IMG/VR virus record: IMGVR_UViG_3300002855_000209
Span: 851-64,850 of that record
Source: a virus
DNA length: 64,000 nucleotides
Direction: 5' to 3' (one strand)
Part shown: one piece after another, positions 7,716 to 64,000 of the stretch
Layout of the letters: each line of letters starts with the position of its first letter
Position numbering within the stretch: the first letter of the stretch is position 1
Program-made: the position numbers and the translations under genes
Notes under the pieces: model-generated
The model's input: only the letters and a program-made list of their open reading frames with translations
What the model was told of the DNA's origin: nothing
Database searches by the model: none

Positions 7716-8531
7716 TTGGCAACCCCATATATAACTATTGGCTGCCCCACCACTGGCGGTGGTCAAGTAATTTCTGGGAACAGTATGTTTCTAGTCGACG
7801 GAATTCCTGTTGCGTGTGTCGGTGATAAAGCTACATGCCCAACTCATAAAGTTGTCGCCACTATTGTATCGGGCGATCCGTGCATGCAAATCTTTGGTAA
7901 AGCTGCTGCTCGAGTAAATGATTCACTCTCTTGTGGTTGTAAATTACTGCCTCAACAAAACTTAGTTGTGCAAGACAACGGCGGTAGCGCTGTATCATCT
8001 ACTAAATCTTCTTCAACTTCAATGTCACAAAAACAGCAGTCTACTGATAGTTTTAGAGAAGATAAATATGAAAACTATTACATTGAACAGTATAAAACTG
8101 ATGTCTACATTAGCCATAAAGCTGTTCTTTTAGGTGATGAAGGTGTAACACCTTTGGATGGAGCTGTGAGCTATTTTCTAAACTACAAAGTTCAAGGTAA
8201 GGAATTATTTTTAAGTGTAGTTATTAATGCAGCTCCATTGAGCCACAAGGGAACTGTTTACCCTTTTGGGACCGCAATTGTTTCACGGGAAGGTAAAGAG
8301 ATTGCCAGAACCAAGTTGAAAAGCGATCAAGGATATTGGCCAACAGATAAAAATAAGGCCCCTTTGGGAAGTTGCACTATCAAGTTGCCAGAACCAAATT
8401 TACAGCTTGTTGATGTAGAGCTTGAACTAGGATATACCGCAGTTATTTCAGATACAGTAGGTTCTGTGCATCCAATGCCCCCTATTAAAAAATATAAGTT
8501 CTCCTTAAATTCTGCGGCTCGCAAGGTATAA
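7716..8531 (+). CDS. PAAR-domain protein with C-terminal extension
   Basis: YITIGCPTTGGGQV...VACVGDKATCPTH...AAARVNDSLSCGCKL PAAR pattern; Ser-rich linker; ~170-aa extension; TTG start. Confidence 0.85.
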   Translation: MATPYITIGCPTTGGGQVISGNSMFLVDGIPVACVGDKATCPTHKVVATIVSGDPCMQIFGKAAARVNDSLSCGCKLLPQQNLVVQDNGGSAVSSTKSSSTSMSQKQQSTDSFREDKYENYYIEQYKTDVYISHKAVLLGDEGVTPLDGAVSYFLNYKVQGKELFLSVVINAAPLSHKGTVYPFGTAIVSREGKEIARTKLKSDQGYWPTDKNKAPLGSCTIKLPEPNLQLVDVELELGYTAVISDTVGSVHPMPPIKKYKFSLNSAARKV

Positions 8532-8537
8532 AAAGTT

Positions 8538-9221
8538 ATGAATAAACTATTAACGATTCTGTTATTAAGTGCTGCGGTTACTGCATGTAACAACCCTAAT
8601 AGCGCGACCAAAATTGCACAAGTGCAGAGTGAGCAATCGAATAATTCAAAAGAAGTATTAAAACCCCTTGTGGCAGAGTTTGATGAAATTATGAGTTCTC
8701 TTCAGACTGAAGCTGACATTACATCTACGCAAGCAAAATTGGAAAAACTTTTAAAGAAATTTCCAGATGACAATGACTCAAGCATACAAGTGCAAAAGTT
8801 AAAATTAAAAGTCCTGCTTCAACTAGGCTATTTAAATGAAGCGGATATTTTGGCAACAAAAATTCTTGCTTTAGATAGCACGGCAAGCATTCAAGAAACA
8901 CAGTGTTTAATTCAAAGAAAATTGCAAAAGCCAGAAAGCCAAATTAATAGCTGTTATGAAAAAGCAGCTAAGCTATATCAAGCACAATACGAAAAATTAA
9001 GTAATGATAATCCACAAAAGCAATATACTCTCTGGTCAAGTTACGCTGCCATGTACCAAGGTGGTCATACTAAATATAAACAAAAGTTGAAAGATCTAGT
9101 TAATGCTCAAACCACTGAAGATGAGAAGCATACTTTTAATACGATGTATGAGAACGTAGTGGACCCAACAGTTATTAAAGAAATTCTTGAATCTATGCCT
9201 TATAAGCAAAAAGCTCATTGA
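8538..9221 (+). CDS. Helical (TPR-like) lipoprotein, putative immunity protein
   Basis: Lipobox VTAC; 6 bp after the PAAR gene; distant paralogue of 9342-9971. Confidence 0.6.
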   Translation: MNKLLTILLLSAAVTACNNPNSATKIAQVQSEQSNNSKEVLKPLVAEFDEIMSSLQTEADITSTQAKLEKLLKKFPDDNDSSIQVQKLKLKVLLQLGYLNEADILATKILALDSTASIQETQCLIQRKLQKPESQINSCYEKAAKLYQAQYEKLSNDNPQKQYTLWSSYAAMYQGGHTKYKQKLKDLVNAQTTEDEKHTFNTMYENVVDPTVIKEILESMPYKQKAH

Positions 9222-9341
9222 AGATCATTTTTTACATCCATATATTAGAATAGCTCTAATTATTTAGGGCTTTTTATAGTGCTTTAATCTAAATGTGGTC
9301 CAGAAAAAGGCATACTCCCTAAAGTAGACTCAATCATAAGT

Positions 9342-9971
9342 ATGAAAAAGTATTTAACCATATTTATCGTTTATTCATCATTTCTTGGTGGCTGTAGCAA
9401 TGTTTCGGATAGTAAAAAACAAAGCGAAATCACAGCACCTAAGCCGATATCTGCCGAAGATCAGAAAATTATAGATAAACATAATGAGTATGTTGAAAAA
9501 TATTCTATGGAAGATAGAGAAGTCTTCCAGAAGCACATGCGGGAAATACTCCCTGAGGTCGATAAAATTACGAACAAACGTAAACGTGAACTACTTCAAA
9601 TGAATATTTATATGATTTTGAATGACTATGAGAAAGCACACGCATTGAATGATAAGCAACTTGCGGAGAAGTCAAATGACACAGCAAGACTTACATTTAG
9701 ATGTCAGTTGTTTACCATTCAAGGGAAAGAAGCAACTTTGGTTAATAAATGCTATGACCATGTTGCAGAGGTTCTAAAAATGGAACTAGGCAAACCAGAA
9801 AACAAGACCGATCCTGATTATAAGATAGGCGAGTTCTCATACTTGTATGCAAAATATAAAGCTGGACACCCTGAGTATAAAGAGAAAATGCAAGAGTACA
9901 TTGCAGAAATTAAAGATGAAAAATTAAAGGCAACTTTAACATCACTTTATAATGTGGAATTTGAAAATTAG
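9342..9971 (+). CDS. Helical lipoprotein, putative immunity paralogue
   Basis: Lipobox LGGC; shares CQL...CY(D/E) and Y..GH..YK.K motifs with 8538-9221. Confidence 0.6.
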   Translation: MKKYLTIFIVYSSFLGGCSNVSDSKKQSEITAPKPISAEDQKIIDKHNEYVEKYSMEDREVFQKHMREILPEVDKITNKRKRELLQMNIYMILNDYEKAHALNDKQLAEKSNDTARLTFRCQLFTIQGKEATLVNKCYDHVAEVLKMELGKPENKTDPDYKIGEFSYLYAKYKAGHPEYKEKMQEYIAEIKDEKLKATLTSLYNVEFEN

Positions 9972-10245
9972 ACAAAAATAGCCCTGATTCCTCAGGGCTT
10001 TTTCTTGAATCATTATTTTTACTTTTTTATAAAGACAATATTTTTCAGTAGTTTATAAAATAATAGCCTGTAATTATAGTAGATATAAAAATCATGTAAT
10101 TTAAAAATATAAAAAAACAAACGGTTATGAGTTTTTTACCAATTGATACAAAAAAGGCTTCCATAAATAAACAAAAACAAGATAAGAATATAGATTATAA
10201 AATCACTATGTAACTATTTTTAGCTTGAGAAACGAATTACCTCTT

Positions 10246-10737
10246 ATGAAAAAGAATATTATTTTACTTTCAGCTTCATTATTAATTATCACACTAAATG
10301 GATGTGATTTTAATAATTATAAATCGGAAAATTTAGAAAGAGAAAAAACATCTTCTGTAATAAATAAAAATCAAAAAAACCAACAAGATTCGTTATTTAT
10401 AGCTTCATTTCCTAATACTCAAATTGTTGATAATGTATTTTTTCTTGATAAAGAAGTGCCTATAAAAATACAAGTTAAAGATAATTGTCTATCAGTCCAC
10501 TTAGAGGATGATAGCAATAAAGATTATTTATTAATTTTAAATAAAAAACAAAAAGTTATTTACAACTCAAATGGAGGTTTAGAAGCAATTCAAGATACTA
10601 AAACGAATAAAACAATTAAGTTAAATACGAAAGCAGGCATTGGAGGTGTCTCTTTTGAAAGCTCAAAAGTAAAATTTAATATTAATCCCCCAGAAAATTG
10701 CCCGAATGAATATATTATTTTAGGAGATTTCCTTTGA
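10246..10737 (+). CDS. Lipoprotein (two-Cys/GG family, paralogue A)
   Basis: Probable ATG at 10246 (MKKNIIL); lipobox LNGC; NCL...GIGG...PENC. Confidence 0.65.
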   Translation: MKKNIILLSASLLIITLNGCDFNNYKSENLEREKTSSVINKNQKNQQDSLFIASFPNTQIVDNVFFLDKEVPIKIQVKDNCLSVHLEDDSNKDYLLILNKKQKVIYNSNGGLEAIQDTKTNKTIKLNTKAGIGGVSFESSKVKFNINPPENCPNEYIILGDFL

Positions 10738-11987
10738 AAACGTTAAGTAATAAAATAACATTATTTTTAATGAGTGGATTATTTGCTACTTGTACTTATG
10801 CAAATCCTTCTATTTCTTCTGTTGAAAAGAAATACAAACTTAGTAAATCGGAAGCAAAAAAGAGAATCGATTTACAAGAAAAAGTAATAGCTTTATCTGA
10901 GAAATTAAATCAGATGAATGATCCAAATTACGCGGACATGTATATACAGCATGTTCCTGTATATAAAATTATAGTGATGTTTTCCGACAATAAGGATCGC
11001 TTTGATTTTTTAAAATCATTAGATCCTGAGATAAGACAATTTGTTCAGGTCAAACAAGTGAAAAAATCTCGTAATGAGACCAATAAAAAATTAGATGAAA
11101 TTAACCAATTATTTACTACTTCTAATATTCCTTTTTCATCTGTGTATGATCTTGAAAAACAAAAGTTCTTAGTAACTGTAGAAAACAATAGCAATTTACA
11201 AACTCTGCAAAGATTATTTACGTCGAAACAAAATCTACTTTCCAGTCCAGATGAAATTTCCTTTAACATTGGAAACATTCCTAAAATACAAGCTGCTCCA
11301 ACGGGCGTACAACCTGGCGATAGATTATATGGTGGTAATCCTGTTTGGAGTAGCGCTGGTGCTACTGGTTATAGATGTACTTTAGGCTATGCTGTTAGTT
11401 ATATTTCGGGAGGCGTATCAAAGAAAGGAATTTTAACAGCAGGTCATTGTGATAATGCATATTTTGCCAATATGGGTAACCATGATGTGCTTCTATATAG
11501 CCCTATTATTGAAAAGCCTCATCAAGCACAAGATGGTATTGCAGATAAGTATGACTATCAGATTTGGGAAACCACTGGTCTAGTTGTTGATAATAAAATC
11601 CAATACAAAGATTTAAATGGTATTCCTGAGTTTCCTGCCTCTGGAATACTAAACTTAACTTCAATTACTACTTTCCTCAACCAAAAAAAAGGTATGTTTG
11701 TTTGTAAATCAGGAGCAGTAACAGGAATTACATGTGGTGAAATTTTAAATGGAAATGCAACGCATGACGGTGTTGCTGGATGGATTCAAGTTGGAAATAG
11801 TAGTCAGGCTAATATAAGTACAGGCGGTGATAGCGGTGGACCATGGTTCATATATCCTGGCTCCTCTTCTAACATTTCTGGTGTGGGTATTCACACAGCA
11901 GGTTCAGATAATCCTGATATAGCTATTTATATGCCTATTGATTATATTGATGATCATATTTCATCTGTAAACACAATTAAGCAATAA
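10734..11987 (+). CDS. Secreted S1 (alpha-lytic/chymotrypsin-like) serine protease with prodomain
   Basis: Signal peptide; CTLG, TAGHC, DY, GDSGGP catalytic motifs; 4-bp overlap with upstream lipoprotein. Confidence 0.85.
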   Translation: MKTLSNKITLFLMSGLFATCTYANPSISSVEKKYKLSKSEAKKRIDLQEKVIALSEKLNQMNDPNYADMYIQHVPVYKIIVMFSDNKDRFDFLKSLDPEIRQFVQVKQVKKSRNETNKKLDEINQLFTTSNIPFSSVYDLEKQKFLVTVENNSNLQTLQRLFTSKQNLLSSPDEISFNIGNIPKIQAAPTGVQPGDRLYGGNPVWSSAGATGYRCTLGYAVSYISGGVSKKGILTAGHCDNAYFANMGNHDVLLYSPIIEKPHQAQDGIADKYDYQIWETTGLVVDNKIQYKDLNGIPEFPASGILNLTSITTFLNQKKGMFVCKSGAVTGITCGEILNGNATHDGVAGWIQVGNSSQANISTGGDSGGPWFIYPGSSSNISGVGIHTAGSDNPDIAIYMPIDYIDDHISSVNTIKQ

Positions 11988-12045
11988 TTATTTCAAACTA
12001 AATCTTGATAATTATGCATGTTAACCTGCCTAAAAAGAGCCCTCA

Positions 12046-12141
12046 TTAGAGGGCTTTCAAACCAATATCTACACTAACATTGCTATTAATCGTATGAGCG
12101 GCATCGTGTAATAGAGTACATTCCAATAAGGCTTTAAACAT
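12046..12141 (-). pseudogene. Relic copy 2 of lysis-linked micro-lipoprotein gene
   Basis: MFKALLECTLLHDAAHTINSNVSVDIGLKAL*; lipobox lost; stop embedded in the same terminator hairpin as copy 1. Confidence 0.65.
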
Positions 12142-12371
12142 CGATTGGCACTATATCGACAATTTGACCAGCTACTCATAATGACATTTATCACCATTAA
12201 TCAAAAACAAATGAGATCGGTCCGCTGAGTAAAGCTTAAAGCTGTAGTCCTGTTTATTCGGGTGAAAGGAACAGCCTTAGTTAAAGGTAATGGAATCGAG
12301 CAATGTGATGAATACTATTACATGTCTACTGACGAACTTTATAATTTAGGCTTTTCATTAGTATATTAATT

Positions 12372-12800
12372 ATGAATAAAAGACGTATTTTAATCACTTT
12401 TCAAACTGGATTGATTATCTTGCTTAATGGATGTACCAATCCTCCTCAGCCTCAAAATAAAGTTATTGTGCCAAAAATTGCTTACTCAGGTGGTGCTGAT
12501 AATGCGAGCTATAGTGAAGCACAAATCAAAATTGAAGGTTCTTGTGTTTATTTAATGCATGAAAGTGATCGAGTCCTTCCTGTTTTTGCAACTAAAGATG
12601 CTCATTGGGATAGCAATAAGCATCTTTTAATTGTTGACTCAAAAGAATATAAAGATCGTGACACTATTGCTTATGGTAGTGGAGAGGCTTATCCCCTTAA
12701 TTTGAATGACTACAACTGGATCGTTAAACCTGATACTACATGTGATCTAAGTAAAGGGATTATTATCAATCAACTTATAGAACCTATTACTAAAAAGTAA
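12372..12800 (+). CDS. Lipoprotein (two-Cys/GG family, paralogue B)
   Basis: Lipobox LNGC; GSCVYL...GSG...PDTTC. Confidence 0.65.
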   Translation: MNKRRILITFQTGLIILLNGCTNPPQPQNKVIVPKIAYSGGADNASYSEAQIKIEGSCVYLMHESDRVLPVFATKDAHWDSNKHLLIVDSKEYKDRDTIAYGSGEAYPLNLNDYNWIVKPDTTCDLSKGIIINQLIEPITKK

Positions 12801-12815
12801 AGAAAAAGCCCTTAT

Positions 12816-13235
12816 ATGAAAATACAACTCTTATTATCTTTAATGACTATTAGCCTTACATCTTGCATGGTAAAGCCTACTATAGCTAACAATGAAGAGA
12901 TCTTTATTCAACCGATACTTATCACAAGCAATACGAGAAGTAATGTTTCAATGATGGCTTCAACACATGGAAAGCTTATTGCAGATAAAAATGGATGTAT
13001 CAGACTCGGCGATGAAACGGGTCCATTAATTATTTGGCGCTATGGCAGCAAATTAGAAAATCTAGGAAATAATATATTTAAAATTACCAATGGTTTTTCA
13101 AATCGATCTGCTTTAATTGGCGAAGAGGTATCAATAGGAGGTGGTTCATATGAAGTAAAATCTACACAAGTCACCCCTTCTGTTCCGGAGGCTTGCACAA
13201 ATCATGGTTACTGGCTAGCTGGACCTATGGACTAA
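12816..13235 (+). CDS. Lipoprotein (two-Cys/GG family, paralogue C)
   Basis: Lipobox LTSC; GKL...NGCIRL...IGGG...PEAC. Confidence 0.65.
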   Translation: MKIQLLLSLMTISLTSCMVKPTIANNEEIFIQPILITSNTRSNVSMMASTHGKLIADKNGCIRLGDETGPLIIWRYGSKLENLGNNIFKITNGFSNRSALIGEEVSIGGGSYEVKSTQVTPSVPEACTNHGYWLAGPMD

Positions 13236-13371
13236 TATATATAATAGTTATCACCTAGAGATTATCACAATAAAATTTGTTCTTATTAATTTTGTTTACT
13301 ATTAATTAAAATAACTATAATATTTTGCATTAATAAAAATTAATTTATAAATTCTCACTAAAGGAATAAAA

Positions 13372-13986
13372 ATGGAATTTTTACCCATCGAAAACAATGG
13401 TGAAAAGGTCTTTGCTGGTTTTTGGAAACGTCTAGGTGCTGCAATTATTGATATAATTGTATTCCTACCTGTAATGTTTATCAGTTATTACATTCAAAGT
13501 ATCTCAATGCTAACCGCAATGCTCACTACAATTATTTTAACTCCTTTATTTTATTTATATATAATTTATTTTCATTACAAATTTGGTGCGACTATCGGAA
13601 AAATGGTAGTAGCTATCCAGATAACTCTACCTAATGGTCATAAGATCGGTCTTAAAGAAGCTGTACTAAGATCTTCAGTAGAAATTGTCATTACCTGTTT
13701 TGTAGTTACAGCCCAACTCATAGCTTTAAACCATGCTGATTCAGTTATTTATCTTAATGCGGAATTGTTAGATCGGGCAAAATACTTAGTACTATTGTTA
13801 CCCACTTGGTATGGTTTAATAAACCTATTGAATCAAGCATGGTTCTGGAGTGAGTTCATAGTTTTACTTTTTAATAAAAGAAAACGTGCAATACATGACT
13901 TTATTGCAGGAACTGTGGTGATCAAAAAAAAATATTCTAAAGATCAAATCCCTAACCCATTTACCAGAAAAGTTATCGCTAGTTAA
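13372..13986 (+). CDS. RDD-family membrane protein
   Basis: FAGFWKRLGAAIID, GATIGK, RAIHDFIAGTVV RDD signatures. Confidence 0.85.
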   Translation: MEFLPIENNGEKVFAGFWKRLGAAIIDIIVFLPVMFISYYIQSISMLTAMLTTIILTPLFYLYIIYFHYKFGATIGKMVVAIQITLPNGHKIGLKEAVLRSSVEIVITCFVVTAQLIALNHADSVIYLNAELLDRAKYLVLLLPTWYGLINLLNQAWFWSEFIVLLFNKRKRAIHDFIAGTVVIKKKYSKDQIPNPFTRKVIAS

Positions 13987-14045: not shown

Positions 14046-14143
14046 TTAGAGAGCTTTCACACAAATTTCTACACTCACATTATTTTGATAGCATGAGCTG
14101 TACATCCTGATAATAGAAAGCACAGCAGTACTAAAGCTTTCAT
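14046..14143 (-). pseudogene. Micro-lipoprotein downstream of endolysin, 1-nt frameshift (copy 1)
   Basis: ATGA overlap with endolysin stop; MKALVLLCFLLSGCTAHAI then frameshift, shifted frame continues NNVSVEICVKAL*; span 98 nt; in-frame product stops at 14075 (22 aa). Confidence 0.65.
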
Positions 14144-14715
14144 AAAGAAACCCTATTAGCGATCCAACCGTAAAAGAATTGCTCTTGGCTTGAATTGCGT
14201 TCACAGATTTCAATATAGCGTTGACCTTGCATGATGTTAAGAACTCGAATTAATACCTTCTCTCCTTCTTTCCCACGTTTGGCCAGATAAGTTTTAAGTG
14301 CATTCAAAGTTGCTGGTCCATATATTCCATCTACTGATAAATCTGGCCAACCTGCCTTACCTTGATTATTAAGCAAATTTAAAGCGCGCTGTAAAAGTGG
14401 TTTCGCAAAGCCAGTACCGCAGTTCACACCAGTATCTAAAAGCTCTTCAGCTATAGCTGAAGAAATATAATTCACTTGGTCAAATCGCGGAACCGTCCAA
14501 TAGTTTTTGCGATAAATTGTTTTCGCCACATCCAGCGGCAAATCTTTCATATTGCCTTTGAATCCATTTGCTCGAGCAACTGCTTCAGTAATGCCGTACT
14601 TTGTTGCGCCGCCACGGTCCGCAGGGTTATTTACATAGCCGCCTTCACGTTTAATAAGTTCTTCAAGATATTGATCAATGTTCATTTCGGTTTCCTTTAG
14701 TCGTAAAAAAGCCAC
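14140..14715 (-). CDS. Endolysin, glycoside hydrolase family 108 with peptidoglycan-binding C-terminus
   Basis: REGGYVNNPADRGGATKYGIT catalytic motif; DGIYGPAT; FFYGW. Confidence 0.92.
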   Translation of the reverse strand: MAFLRLKETEMNIDQYLEELIKREGGYVNNPADRGGATKYGITEAVARANGFKGNMKDLPLDVAKTIYRKNYWTVPRFDQVNYISSAIAEELLDTGVNCGTGFAKPLLQRALNLLNNQGKAGWPDLSVDGIYGPATLNALKTYLAKRGKEGEKVLIRVLNIMQGQRYIEICERNSSQEQFFYGWIANRVSL

Positions 14716-60663: not shown

Positions 60664-61329
60664 ATGGACAGTAAAAGTATCCGCTACATTAATACCCGTT
60701 TTCTTGTAGACCAAGTTGGTGGCGTATCGAACTTTGCTGATAAAATTAATAAAGGGCAATCTCAAACTAGCCAATTTGCAGGTACAAACCCCATAAAAGG
60801 GATTGGTAATAAAGTAGCGCGTGAAATTGAAGATGCTTTTGGTAAACCGCATGGTTGGTTAGATATTCCCCATGCTGAAACAGAATTAGACAATAATATT
60901 GATCTGCAAAGAAGAATAAATGTTGAAGGAAAACTGATTCCTGTTATTTCATGGATTAGAGCTGGTACGTGGACAACTATTGATAGTATTCCTATGGATA
61001 CTGAATTTGCAGAATGGTTACCCCCCAATCCTAAATGTGGCAAAAATGGTTATGGACTAATTGTACGAGGCGAATCTATGTCTCCAAGATTTGAACCAGA
61101 AGATCGAATTTATGTAAACCCAGATATCCCTGTAAGTGATTTAAAAACCGGAGATCTTGTTATTGTTGCGTGTGAGGGAGAAAAAGAGGCAACTTTTAAA
61201 AAGTTAGTTATAGAAACTGATGGAATGTATTTAGAAGCACTGAACCCTAAGTGGCATGAAAAAATTATGGAGCTACACGAGGGCTGTAAACTAGTAGGAA
61301 AAGTTGTGGGATTATATCGTGAAGTATAG
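60664..61329 (+). CDS. cI: CI repressor (HTH + S24 autopeptidase)
   Basis: IPVISWIRAG cleavage region; VRGESM Ser; ATFKKL Lys. Confidence 0.92.
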   Translation: MDSKSIRYINTRFLVDQVGGVSNFADKINKGQSQTSQFAGTNPIKGIGNKVAREIEDAFGKPHGWLDIPHAETELDNNIDLQRRINVEGKLIPVISWIRAGTWTTIDSIPMDTEFAEWLPPNPKCGKNGYGLIVRGESMSPRFEPEDRIYVNPDIPVSDLKTGDLVIVACEGEKEATFKKLVIETDGMYLEALNPKWHEKIMELHEGCKLVGKVVGLYREV

Positions 61330-61419
61330 TCCTTCAAAGCAAACAGAACTTAGATAAAACTGATATCTATGTTAATCTTAATAGGCAAAAATCACCTTAT
61401 GTCTTTGGAGTTTCATTAA

Positions 61420-62382
61420 TTGGCTACAGCAGAACAAATTAAAATGCTTATAAAAAGCCATGGTGAAAATGATCACCAAAGATTCTATTCAACAGCACTT
61501 CAAATCGCAGCGAGAGAGGCACGCCTAGGGCATAATAAGCTTGCCACTGATATTAAAAATTTAATCGAATCATACCAATTTAAAGCCCCGTCTACTAACG
61601 ATCTTTTTCAAAACTATACTAATCAAAAAGATTTAGATGGACTTTTTGATTTTTCGATGCCTCATGTTAACAAACAGACCTTAGTTTTGGACAATGTAAC
61701 TATAGAAAGAGTTAACATCATTATTCATGAGCAAAAACAAAAAAATCTTTTAAAAAAATTTGATTTGAAGCCCCGTAATAAAATCTTATTTGTAGGAGCC
61801 CCAGGTACAGGAAAAACTTTAACAGCCAGTATTCTTGCTTCTGAATTAAAAATGCCTCTATATAAAGTGATTTTAGAATCTTTAATTTCTAAGTTTATGG
61901 GGGATACAGCAACAAAGTTACGTAGTATTTTTGAATTTATGTCAAATAATATTGGCGTTTATCTTTTTGATGAATTCGATGCTATTGGCTCACAAAGAAA
62001 CCTTACAAATGATGTAGGTGAGATTAGAAGAATATTAAATTCTTTTTTAATTCTATTAGAACAAACTACAACTGAAAGTATAATTATTGCAGCAACAAAT
62101 CATCCTGAACTATTAGATGCAGCATTAAATAGAAGATTTGATGACATCATAAAATTTGAAAAACCTAGTGAAATTGAAATTAAGAAATTTATTAAGACTA
62201 AAATAAATATTTTTGAACATGAAGAAATACTTTGGGAAAAAATCATAGAAATAGCATCTAATTTAAGCCTTGGAGATATTTCAAAAGCATTTGACGACGC
62301 AGCAAAAGAGTCTATACTTTATAATAATAGTTACTTTACGAATAAAATTTTTCTTTCTTCACTTTCTCGTAGAAAGAAATAA
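61420..62382 (+). CDS. ietA: AAA+ ATPase of IetAS system
   Basis: MATAEQIK.LI start; GAPGTGKT; LFDEFDAI; ATNHPELLDAAL.RRFD; upstream of S8 protease. Confidence 0.82.
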   Translation: MATAEQIKMLIKSHGENDHQRFYSTALQIAAREARLGHNKLATDIKNLIESYQFKAPSTNDLFQNYTNQKDLDGLFDFSMPHVNKQTLVLDNVTIERVNIIIHEQKQKNLLKKFDLKPRNKILFVGAPGTGKTLTASILASELKMPLYKVILESLISKFMGDTATKLRSIFEFMSNNIGVYLFDEFDAIGSQRNLTNDVGEIRRILNSFLILLEQTTTESIIIAATNHPELLDAALNRRFDDIIKFEKPSEIEIKKFIKTKINIFEHEEILWEKIIEIASNLSLGDISKAFDDAAKESILYNNSYFTNKIFLSSLSRRKK

Positions 62383-62415
62383 TTACTTTTATTTTTTTGT
62401 TATATGGAGGGAAGT

Positions 62416-64000
62416 ATGAGCAATAGGCCTCATATTAATTTTATATGTTCAAACCATGCTTTTAGTTATACTTCAAAAAATAGTCCTCCAAAATCTTCTA
62501 TACCTTCACGTGATTATTATAAGCATGCAAGAAACTTATTGATTGAATTCTCTGATGCTGAAATGCTTTTTAATGAAAAAAAATATGAAGTTTTATCTAC
62601 TAATGAAGTAGTAGAGAATCAAGGAATTTACTTATCTATTACTAGTGCTCCTCACCATCAACTTCCTTTAGAATCCTTTGATACAAAAGATATTCATTTA
62701 GCAAAAGTTCAATATAATACAATTTCAGAAACTGAAGAAGCGGTCATCTTCATTCCTGACAGTAAAAGAAGTATTTTTTTAAATAAATTTAGCGAATATT
62801 TAAAAACAATTAGCAAAGATCCAAATAAGAATCCATCAAATAAAAGTTTTGTGAATAGTATTGAAAGTATAAAATTATCTAACTTAAAAGACTTCTGGAC
62901 AGATGATAAAAAGCTTTATCCACAAGATAAAAATGCTCCAATTTGGTGGGAAGTTTGGATCAAAAAAGTTGAAGATAATGCAGAATACACTTTTGAAAAA
63001 GTAAAAGAGTTTTCAAACAATATTAAAGCTGAATTAGGTAATCATTATTTAAACTTCTTTAATAATATGGTTTTCCTTATTAGAACTAGTGAAAACAATC
63101 TAGAAAAATCTCTTTTCCTTATGACAAATCTTTTAGAACTGAGATATGTTCCCGAAACCCCATCTTTTTTCGTAAATCTAAACAGTAAAGAACAAAAAGA
63201 ATGGGTAAAAGATTTTTCAGCGAGATTAACTATTAATAATAATCCTAAAACATCCATATGTATATTGGATACAGGAATTAACTATAATCACCCCCTACTT
63301 ACATATATTTCTTCTGAAGAAAACTCTTTATCATATGATCCTAAATGGCCTAAATATGATATCAAACCTACTAGTTATTCTAGAGAGCCTTATACTCCCC
63401 ACGGATCAATGCAAGCAGGAATAGCTGGGTTTGGTAATCTAAAGAAATGTTTAGAAAGCGAAGCTAACATTTATGTACCTCATATTTTAGAGTCTGGAAG
63501 AATCTTACCGCCCAAAGGTTATAATAAGCCAGAGTTATATGGTGCGATCGTTACTGAGACCTCTTATAAAGTAGAAATACAAAACACACAAATACAAAAC
63601 CGGATCTTCTCATTAGCTGTTTCTGCCAACTCTGAAAATACAGGAGTTCCTTCTTCATGGTCCTCAGAAATAGACCGGTTTACATTTGGAGAGTTTTCTG
63701 ATTCCTACAAAAGACTTTTTATAATTTCTACTGGAAATAACATCAATTTAAATTCCAATCTTGATCTTTGGGATCAAGCTCATTTAGCAAAAATTGAAGA
63801 TCCTGCTCAAAGTTGGAATGCAATAACTGTAGGTTCAATAACTCATTTAACCACCATTACAGATCCTAATTTCGATCAATGGCAACCATGGAGCAGTAAA
63901 GGAAATATTTCCCCTTCTGCAAGATCCTCAGTAAATTGGGAATGGAAAAAACAAGCTCCTCTCAAACCTGAATTTGTAGTTGAAGGTGGAAATAGGCTTT
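62416..64000 (+). CDS. ietS: S8 (subtilisin-like) peptidase of IetAS system, truncated by window edge
   Basis: Manual translation from ATG 62416: WWEVW, ICILDTGIN..HPLL, PHGS.QAG, STGN, DPAQSWNAITVGS, KPEFVVEGGN. Confidence 0.85.
   Translation, partial: MSNRPHINFICSNHAFSYTSKNSPPKSSIPSRDYYKHARNLLIEFSDAEMLFNEKKYEVLSTNEVVENQGIYLSITSAPHHQLPLESFDTKDIHLAKVQYNTISETEEAVIFIPDSKRSIFLNKFSEYLKTISKDPNKNPSNKSFVNSIESIKLSNLKDFWTDDKKLYPQDKNAPIWWEVWIKKVEDNAEYTFEKVKEFSNNIKAELGNHYLNFFNNMVFLIRTSENNLEKSLFLMTNLLELRYVPETPSFFVNLNSKEQKEWVKDFSARLTINNNPKTSICILDTGINYNHPLLTYISSEENSLSYDPKWPKYDIKPTSYSREPYTPHGSMQAGIAGFGNLKKCLESEANIYVPHILESGRILPPKGYNKPELYGAIVTETSYKVEIQNTQIQNRIFSLAVSANSENTGVPSSWSSEIDRFTFGEFSDSYKRLFIISTGNNINLNSNLDLWDQAHLAKIEDPAQSWNAITVGSITHLTTITDPNFDQWQPWSSKGNISPSARSSVNWEWKKQAPLKPEFVVEGGNRL

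Follow-up and report, generated by a model that had tools for sequence, protein, structure and literature searches.

A 64,000-nucleotide stretch of Acinetobacter DNA, bases 851-64850 of the 70.9-kb IMG/VR provirus record IMGVR_UViG_3300002855_000209 (hereafter the window), was analyzed at positions 10246-13235, where four open reading frames (ORFs), all on the + strand, encode a lipoprotein (lipA), a secreted serine protease of the S1E (alpha-lytic/streptogrisin) type and two further lipoproteins (lipB and lipC). lipA is probably, though by no means certainly, the cognate, membrane-tethered active-site inhibitor of the protease, with the two genes forming a mobile cassette; this reading rests on conserved gene neighborhoods and on a predicted complex. 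The locus had been singled out in an original prediction made from the DNA sequence alone, and all four ORFs were recovered at the positions given there.

lipA (10246-10737, + strand) encodes a 163-aa lipoprotein with the lipobox LNGC, the lipobox Cys lying at 10303. The longest ORF opens at 10225, and the ATG at 10246 yields MKKNIILLSASLLIITLNGC. The protease gene (10734-11987, + strand, 417 aa) begins with a TTG start codon that is overlapped by the lipA stop codon by 4 nt (TTGA), in keeping with the coupling of the two genes that had been predicted, and a 4-nt overlap was also found in three related loci (L119, L121 and L122). Across 39 loci seeded with relatives of the protease, a member of the lipA family was encoded on the same strand as the protease gene and immediately next to it, on either side and often with overlap, in 31, which correspond to ~23 distinct lineages after merging of identical copies and include Acinetobacter, Moraxella, many Sphingomonadales, one Chloroflexota and one Actinomycetota. 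Adjacency with overlap was found across phyla and in both gene orders. Within these 13-kb loci, the final round of profile searching returned no ORF away from the protease gene at E 1e-3, and clustering of the ORFs located within 3 kb of the protease gave no third conserved neighbor beyond the lipoprotein. For the reverse test, six family representatives were sampled from a global search; five of the contigs had informative flanks, and in four of these five a protease of the same family as that in the window abutted or overlapped the lipoprotein gene (E 4.6e-181 to 6.2e-11). In five whole genomes the family was restricted to the protease locus, apart from one additional copy. Neighborhood analysis from both directions thus supported the proposed linkage of the lipoprotein family to S1 proteases. 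Judged by these neighborhoods, lipA alone among the three window lipoproteins is a conserved partner of the protease, and it is very probably its physical partner. No published description of the pair was found in the literature searched (S1E together with lipoprotein or inhibitor; Acinetobacter).

One of the closest relatives of the protease (97% identity, L121) again adjoins a PAAR cassette, as it does in the window, and a relative at 71% identity lies beside tniQ, tniB and the transposase of a Tn7-like element; other copies are chromosomal. Near-identical protease and lipoprotein genes were present in six Sphingomonas/Sphingobium assemblies and in a Devosia metagenome-assembled genome (L013-L018, L029), a degree of similarity that indicates recent horizontal spread; in at least two of these loci a second family member lies downstream. 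Given the prophage location here and the Tn7-like neighbors and near-identical copies elsewhere, lipA and the protease gene are best regarded as a mobile two-gene cassette. A role of the pair in lysogenic conversion (receptor clipping, biofilm, competition) is a plausible candidate, as suggested by its location in the accessory arm of the provirus. Both genes were also recovered in a single contig of 2.1-2.2 kb, at ~95% identity, in two soil metatranscriptome runs from one study, although contigs from RNA libraries are not proof of transcription.

The protease is laid out as a signal peptide (residues ~1-23), a pro-region of ~165 aa (~24-188) and a catalytic domain (~189-417). In an alignment of 27 homologues, His238 (codon 11445-11447), Asp274 (11553-11555) and Ser367 (11832-11834) were invariant and in the order His, Asp, Ser, with TAGHC and GDSGG motifs, as were the pairs Cys215/Cys239 and Cys324/Cys334; the N-terminal 165 residues that follow the signal peptide were also well conserved. 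The top PDB sequence matches were Thermobifida protease A (TFPA, 2pfe; E 2e-6) and alpha-lytic protease. The AlphaFold model (AF2; predicted local distance difference test, pLDDT, 86) consisted of an alpha/beta pro-region and a catalytic domain, and when the latter was compared with the PDB using Foldseek the top matches were all S1E enzymes (target template-modeling score 0.70-0.78, E 1e-11 to 1e-10), namely TFPA, NAPase, SFase, Lysobacter L1/L5, alpha-lytic protease and Glu-SGP (2pfe, 2oua, 2sfa, 5mrr, 2lpr, 1hpg). The assignment to an alpha-lytic-like S1 protease with triad, signal peptide and prodomain was thereby upheld. Against the curated models the protease reached 13.3 bits for Pfam Trypsin, where 20.6 are required, and 30.1 bits for NCBIfam Rv1815_serprot, where 175 are required, and its pro-region, conserved and confidently folded as alpha/beta over residues 24-~188, was not matched by the Pfam model of the alpha-lytic pro-domain. 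Database searching returned 133 homologues of ~420 aa, those named coming from Acinetobacter, Moraxella, Sphingomonadales and Thermoanaerobaculia, and most were labeled 'S1 family peptidase' or 'hypothetical'.

These proteins form a divergent ~420-aa subfamily, spread over Moraxellaceae, Sphingomonadales and Thermoanaerobaculia, of the well-known MEROPS S1E kind. With the S1E enzymes (Lysobacter alpha-lytic protease and L1/L5, Thermobifida TFPA, Streptomyces SGPA/B and Glu-SGP) the window protease shares the order of the triad, the Cys pairs and the architecture of signal peptide, long pro-region and ~230-aa catalytic domain; unlike the classic members, to which it is only ~20-25% identical, it has a lipoprotein partner, none having been found described for them. 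Stand-alone ORFs of ~200-230 aa that match the pro-region alone (profile positions ~42-185) were also observed (G104:C19:1650-2081, G177:C1:722279-722689, G184:C29:41874-42260 and G144:C1:1515608-1516006).

The model of mature lipA comprises a ~44-aa disordered linker and a ~100-aa beta core (core pLDDT 81-95), which is OB-like (oligonucleotide/oligosaccharide-binding fold) and contains Cys62 and Cys133 (mature numbering). For prediction of the complex, protease residues 186-417 and lipA residues 45-144 were each supplied with their own alignment, and three controls were run. The complex score was 0.84 and that of the best control 0.00; the same mark was attained by 58 of 80 solved complexes and by 2 of 110 mismatched pairs. 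Runs shared at least 82% of contacts, partner pLDDT was at least 80 and the interface comprised 72-77 contacts, formed on the protease side by His238, Ser367 and residues 362-367, 387-391, 212-215, 396 and 398, and on the lipA side by residues 45-53, 114-115 and 141-142. lipA residues 47-49 were predicted to contact protease residues 388-390, residue 48 to contact His238, residue 49 to contact Ser367 and 364-366, and residues 50-51 to contact 214-215; the GG motif of lipA (114-115) is part of the interface and contacts protease residue 364, with at least 90% conservation of Gly115 across the family. The predicted pose would be substrate-like, with F47-L48-D49 as P3-P1 (Asp49 codon, 10447-10449) and K50-E51 as P1'-P2'. 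The original prediction had left open whether the lipoproteins act as inhibitor or as chaperone, and predicted binding of lipA over the active site favors the former.

The residue at the P1 column of the lipoprotein varied with the protease pocket: where the protease has His at column 387, it was acidic in 8 of 13 lineages, and where column 387 holds a different residue, in 0 of 7 (Fisher p = 0.015, uncorrected for phylogeny). Glu-specific S1E enzymes use His at a pocket position that may be equivalent to column 387, and the title of 1hpg, the Glu-SGP fold match, agrees with this; the equivalence could not be confirmed by alignment. We infer an acidic (Glu/Asp) P1 specificity for the protease.

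In the mechanism that we propose, the protease would be exported by Sec, fold via its own ~165-aa pro-region and be released as an S1E enzyme of ~230 aa. lipA would be held at a membrane by its lipid anchor and the ~44-residue flexible linker, and its disulfide-braced OB-like core would dock on the catalytic domain. The segment Val45-Pro53, just ahead of the first strand, would then fill the cleft in the manner of a substrate, with Asp49 as the P1 residue against Ser367 and the bond to Lys50 at the point of cleavage, and the conserved GG motif would rest against the oxyanion-hole region. The enzyme would be blocked near the envelope of its producer, lipA serving either for self-protection or as a latency inhibitor, and the pair may in this way benefit the lysogen. 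An action of lipB or lipC on this protease forms no part of the proposal; they carry other residues, Ala and Met, at the predicted P1 column.

lipA, lipB and lipC belong to one family. Pairwise BLAST matches were too weak to decide paralogy (lipA-lipC, E 2e-4; lipA-lipB, mostly in the signal peptide; lipB-lipC, no match), and a core-only profile was used in their place. When the 2144 ORFs of the 39 protease-relative loci were searched iteratively with a profile started from lipA and its nearest relatives, lipC entered in the first round (E 8e-6) and lipB in the fourth. As a control against drift driven by signal peptides, a profile was built from the C-terminal ~110 aa only, using relatives from other genomes and excluding every window protein; it scored lipA at 3.5e-9, lipB at 1.5e-6 and lipC at 9.8e-5, with no further ORF at E <= 10 among the 2144. 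Homology of the three, which the original prediction had asserted, was thus found by profile alignment, and lipB and lipC are distant paralogues of lipA with an independent history. The two-Cys/GG pattern noted at the outset is likewise real: the shared core reads G-x-L-x(4)-C-L ... GG ... P-x(2)-C-P ... G, and in an alignment of mature proteins the first core Cys was invariant and the second core Cys and one Gly of the GG were at least 90% conserved. A lipobox-type signal was present in all three window lipoproteins and in nearly all relatives.

The family has no model or name in Pfam, NCBIfam, PHROG or the ESM Atlas. At E <= 1e-3 its profile matched 2811 clusters among 1.84 billion representative proteins, of which 218 also passed 1e-10; many contain two to four tandem domains, and of 10 long family members inspected for fusion to a protease, none contained a protease domain. 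Foldseek comparison of the lipA model with the PDB gave no match at E <= 1e-3, and the matches among AFDB clusters were uncharacterized lipoproteins and DUF5666.

lipB (12372-12800, + strand; 142 aa, lipobox LLNGC), a divergent family member, is the first gene of a separate lipB-lipC unit, in which it is followed by lipC (12816-13235, + strand; 139 aa, lipobox LTSC). Orthologues of lipC, 74-96% identical to it, are often found in the A. calcoaceticus-baumannii group and always lie directly after a lipB orthologue. In related Acinetobacter prophages the two genes and a gene for an RDD-family membrane protein, at 13372-13986 (+ strand) in the window, are found beside a GH108 endolysin gene, and at one chromosomal site lipB-lipC occurs without the RDD gene; no protease was present within 6 kb of lipB-lipC in any of the related prophages or at the chromosomal site (L109-L113). 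lipB-lipC appears to be a different, older prophage-linked pair, separate from lipA-protease. Since lipB-lipC(-RDD) is conserved without the protease, the window is taken to combine the lipA-protease cassette with lipB-lipC-RDD as a second, resident unit, which matches the signals in the DNA: hairpins found by a terminator scan at 9980-9999 (G+C-rich, with T tracts on both strands; no strand assigned), where an upstream PAAR/immunity-like cassette is divided from the lipA-protease unit, and at 12034-12055 (no strand assigned), 3' of the protease gene, and a promoter-like site at 12317-12345, ahead of lipB. The description of a protease surrounded by three lipoproteins is accurate as to layout and tied lipB and lipC too closely to the protease. 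Within the proposed module, the lipA-protease pair stands, with the predicted pose pointing to an inhibitor, and lipB and lipC fall outside it.

The spacer between the protease gene and lipB is a variable insertion point. In contigs from two soil runs, 26 nt of unrelated sequence stand in place of its 266-nt stretch at 12101-12368, and one other metagenome contig skips 12282-12679, by which most of lipB is lost.

Adjacent lipoproteins that inhibit secreted peptidases have been described in Tannerella forsythia as potempins, which are encoded directly upstream of the peptidases, fold as OB-type (PotA/C/D) or eight-stranded barrels and act on the linked enzyme by obstructing its cleft, with inhibition constants in the nanomolar range (PMC9890683). 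lipA resembles them in being a small lipobox lipoprotein whose gene, unlike lipB and lipC, is adjacent to and co-directional with that of a secreted peptidase, and perhaps in the type of scaffold. The two systems differ in that the main functional loops of OB-fold potempins lie between strands 4 and 5, whereas the predicted segment of lipA lies ahead of strand 1, and in that potempins serve KLIKK peptidases of the type IX secretion system (T9SS) in one Bacteroidota species, whereas the lipA family occurs in Proteobacteria and other phyla with S1E partners. When the profile of the lipoprotein family was searched against all PDB sequences, including the potempin entries 8ehb and 8b2n, no match was obtained at E <= 10.

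Two periplasmic protease inhibitors of Gram-negative bacteria also bear comparison. The gene of AprI/Inh (Pfam PF02974) adjoins that of its secreted protease, which is a metalloprotease, and ecotin is a dimer that targets a broad range of S1 enzymes. If lipA is an inhibitor, it would resemble both as an envelope-located protein that neutralizes a protease near its producer, although the folds differ; among 28 lipoprotein family members searched with the Inh and ecotin profiles, the best match was of one member to Inh at E 0.094, and none matched ecotin.

Several observations weigh against inhibition by lipA. The complex score expresses how confident the model itself is, and it is only roughly calibrated because own alignments were used. 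The equation of His387 with chymotrypsin position 213 rests on predicted contacts, and sequence alignments disagree in this region. The predicted reactive segment sits at the junction of linker and core and not on a disulfide-clamped loop, as it would in classic standard-mechanism inhibitors. The top fold matches of lipA include potempin D at Z 5.4-5.7 (root-mean-square deviation 3.9-4.0, 80-86 residues aligned) and potempin A at Z 4.7-4.8, values tied with those of Rpb7/S1-type OB folds, and the potempins are therefore cited as an analogy and not as evidence of kinship. Finally, the family is present in 112 of 401 Moraxellaceae genomes sampled, in up to eight copies per genome and in tandem arrays, and full-length proteases of the window type in about four; the lipoprotein so far outnumbers the protease that most Moraxellaceae members are without an S1E neighbor, and the neighbors of unlinked members include housekeeping and other unrelated genes, such as those for a HemN-like radical SAM protein, enolase, SHMT and TolB.

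The substrate-like pose suits a dedicated substrate of the protease equally well, and the strongest alternative, which we consider unlikely, is that lipA is such a substrate, cleavage at about D49-K50 freeing the beta domain from the membrane, or that it merely anchors the enzyme at the surface. The predicted site falls exactly at the junction of disordered tether and folded core, and an acidic P1 column that tracks a pocket residue of the protease would be expected equally of a co-evolving cleavage site. Against this, the interface, which extends to the GG at 114-115 and the C-terminal strand, is larger than a cleavage site needs. In addition, intact lipoprotein genes were found at several Moraxellaceae loci beside stop-interrupted or fragmentary protease genes (L045/L079, from A. 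lwoffii, where the protease copy is broken by a stop codon; L068, L069, L071 and L078). This is the pattern expected if a protective partner outlives its enzyme and, together with the expanded protease-free members, it is hard to explain for a pure substrate.

The protease-free members also invite a broader interpretation, in which the two-Cys OB-like lipoproteins as a whole would make up a large unrecognized family whose members inhibit S1 serine proteases in an immunity-like manner, and the copies that lack a protease (lipB-lipC and the Moraxellaceae arrays of up to eight) would be orphan inhibitors that guard the envelope against proteases of competitors or those encountered in a host and are spread by prophages as protective cargo. 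We regard this extension as doubtful. Arrays of up to 7-8 family genes without an S1E protease in Moraxellaceae genomes (for example, G271:C1:199409-207705 and G267:C10:142417-145900) resemble sets of orphan immunity genes. Separately, in a single case in an Acinetobacter-family genome (L066:1246-3203), a family member is followed by the gene of a 448-aa serpin (Pfam Serpin, E 1e-114).

Still less probable is that these proteins are general envelope lipoproteins with an OB fold, unrelated to proteolysis, whose adjacency to the protease reflects shared mobile cargo and whose predicted complex is a false positive. The unrelated genes that neighbor most Moraxellaceae members, the movement of lipB-lipC without a protease and the two mismatched pairs that passed the complex test are all consistent with this view; the overlapping adjacency held across phyla in both gene orders, the controls at 0.00 and the near-confinement of the family to the protease locus in the five whole genomes argue against it. 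Equally improbable is a function of lipA as a pilot or chaperone in export or maturation of the protease, to which the tight translational coupling of the two genes and the need of S1E enzymes such as alpha-lytic protease for folding assistance would lend themselves, since the protease comes with its own pro-region, which is conserved, confidently folded and as large as is usual, and lipA is predicted to contact the mature active site and not folding intermediates or the pro-region.

The surroundings of the locus are those of a prophage accessory region. The plus-strand block at 7716-13986 encodes, in order, a PAAR protein, two helical lipoproteins, lipA, the protease, lipB, lipC and the RDD membrane protein. 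Minus-strand late phage genes begin at a GH108 endolysin (14140-14715) and continue with DUF4882, a tail fiber and others, and accessory or defense-type genes (PIN, an AAA_15/DUF3696 ATPase, Arc-like and Bro-N) lie left of 7500; the block therefore occupies the accessory arm, flanked by the lysis genes on one side and the end of the prophage on the other. A GntP-type permease is encoded at the extreme edge of the window. A search for att-like direct repeats between the left and far window ends gave just one 16-mer, which was uninformative, and the prophage extends past the window.

At 7716-9971, the PAAR-domain protein carries a C-terminal extension of ~190 aa (PHROG 23203) and is followed by the genes of the two helical lipoproteins, which are paralogous (pairwise E 2e-9); this cassette looks like an effector with duplicated immunity genes. 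At 60664-63999, the gene of an S24 (CI-like) repressor has as neighbors a gene for a 320-aa AAA ATPase and one for an S8 subtilase that continues beyond the window (>532 aa); these two are possibly a defense-type pair.

If lipA inhibits its protease, the lipoproteins would constitute a previously undescribed family of S1E protease inhibitors, with ~2,800 clusters at 50% identity, and the design of a secreted protease with an adjacent lipoprotein inhibitor, documented in detail so far for the Tannerella potempins, would be widespread and mobile in Proteobacteria and beyond. A simple rule of specificity, pairing the P1 residue with the residue at pocket column 387, would follow, and tight, specific protein inhibitors of alpha-lytic-type proteases would be useful reagents. 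For the producer, the protease may serve in nutrition, in bacteriolysis as in Lysobacter or in surface remodeling. A function would also be provided for common 'hypothetical lipoproteins' of Acinetobacter, some of which are carried on prophages of the A. calcoaceticus-baumannii group.

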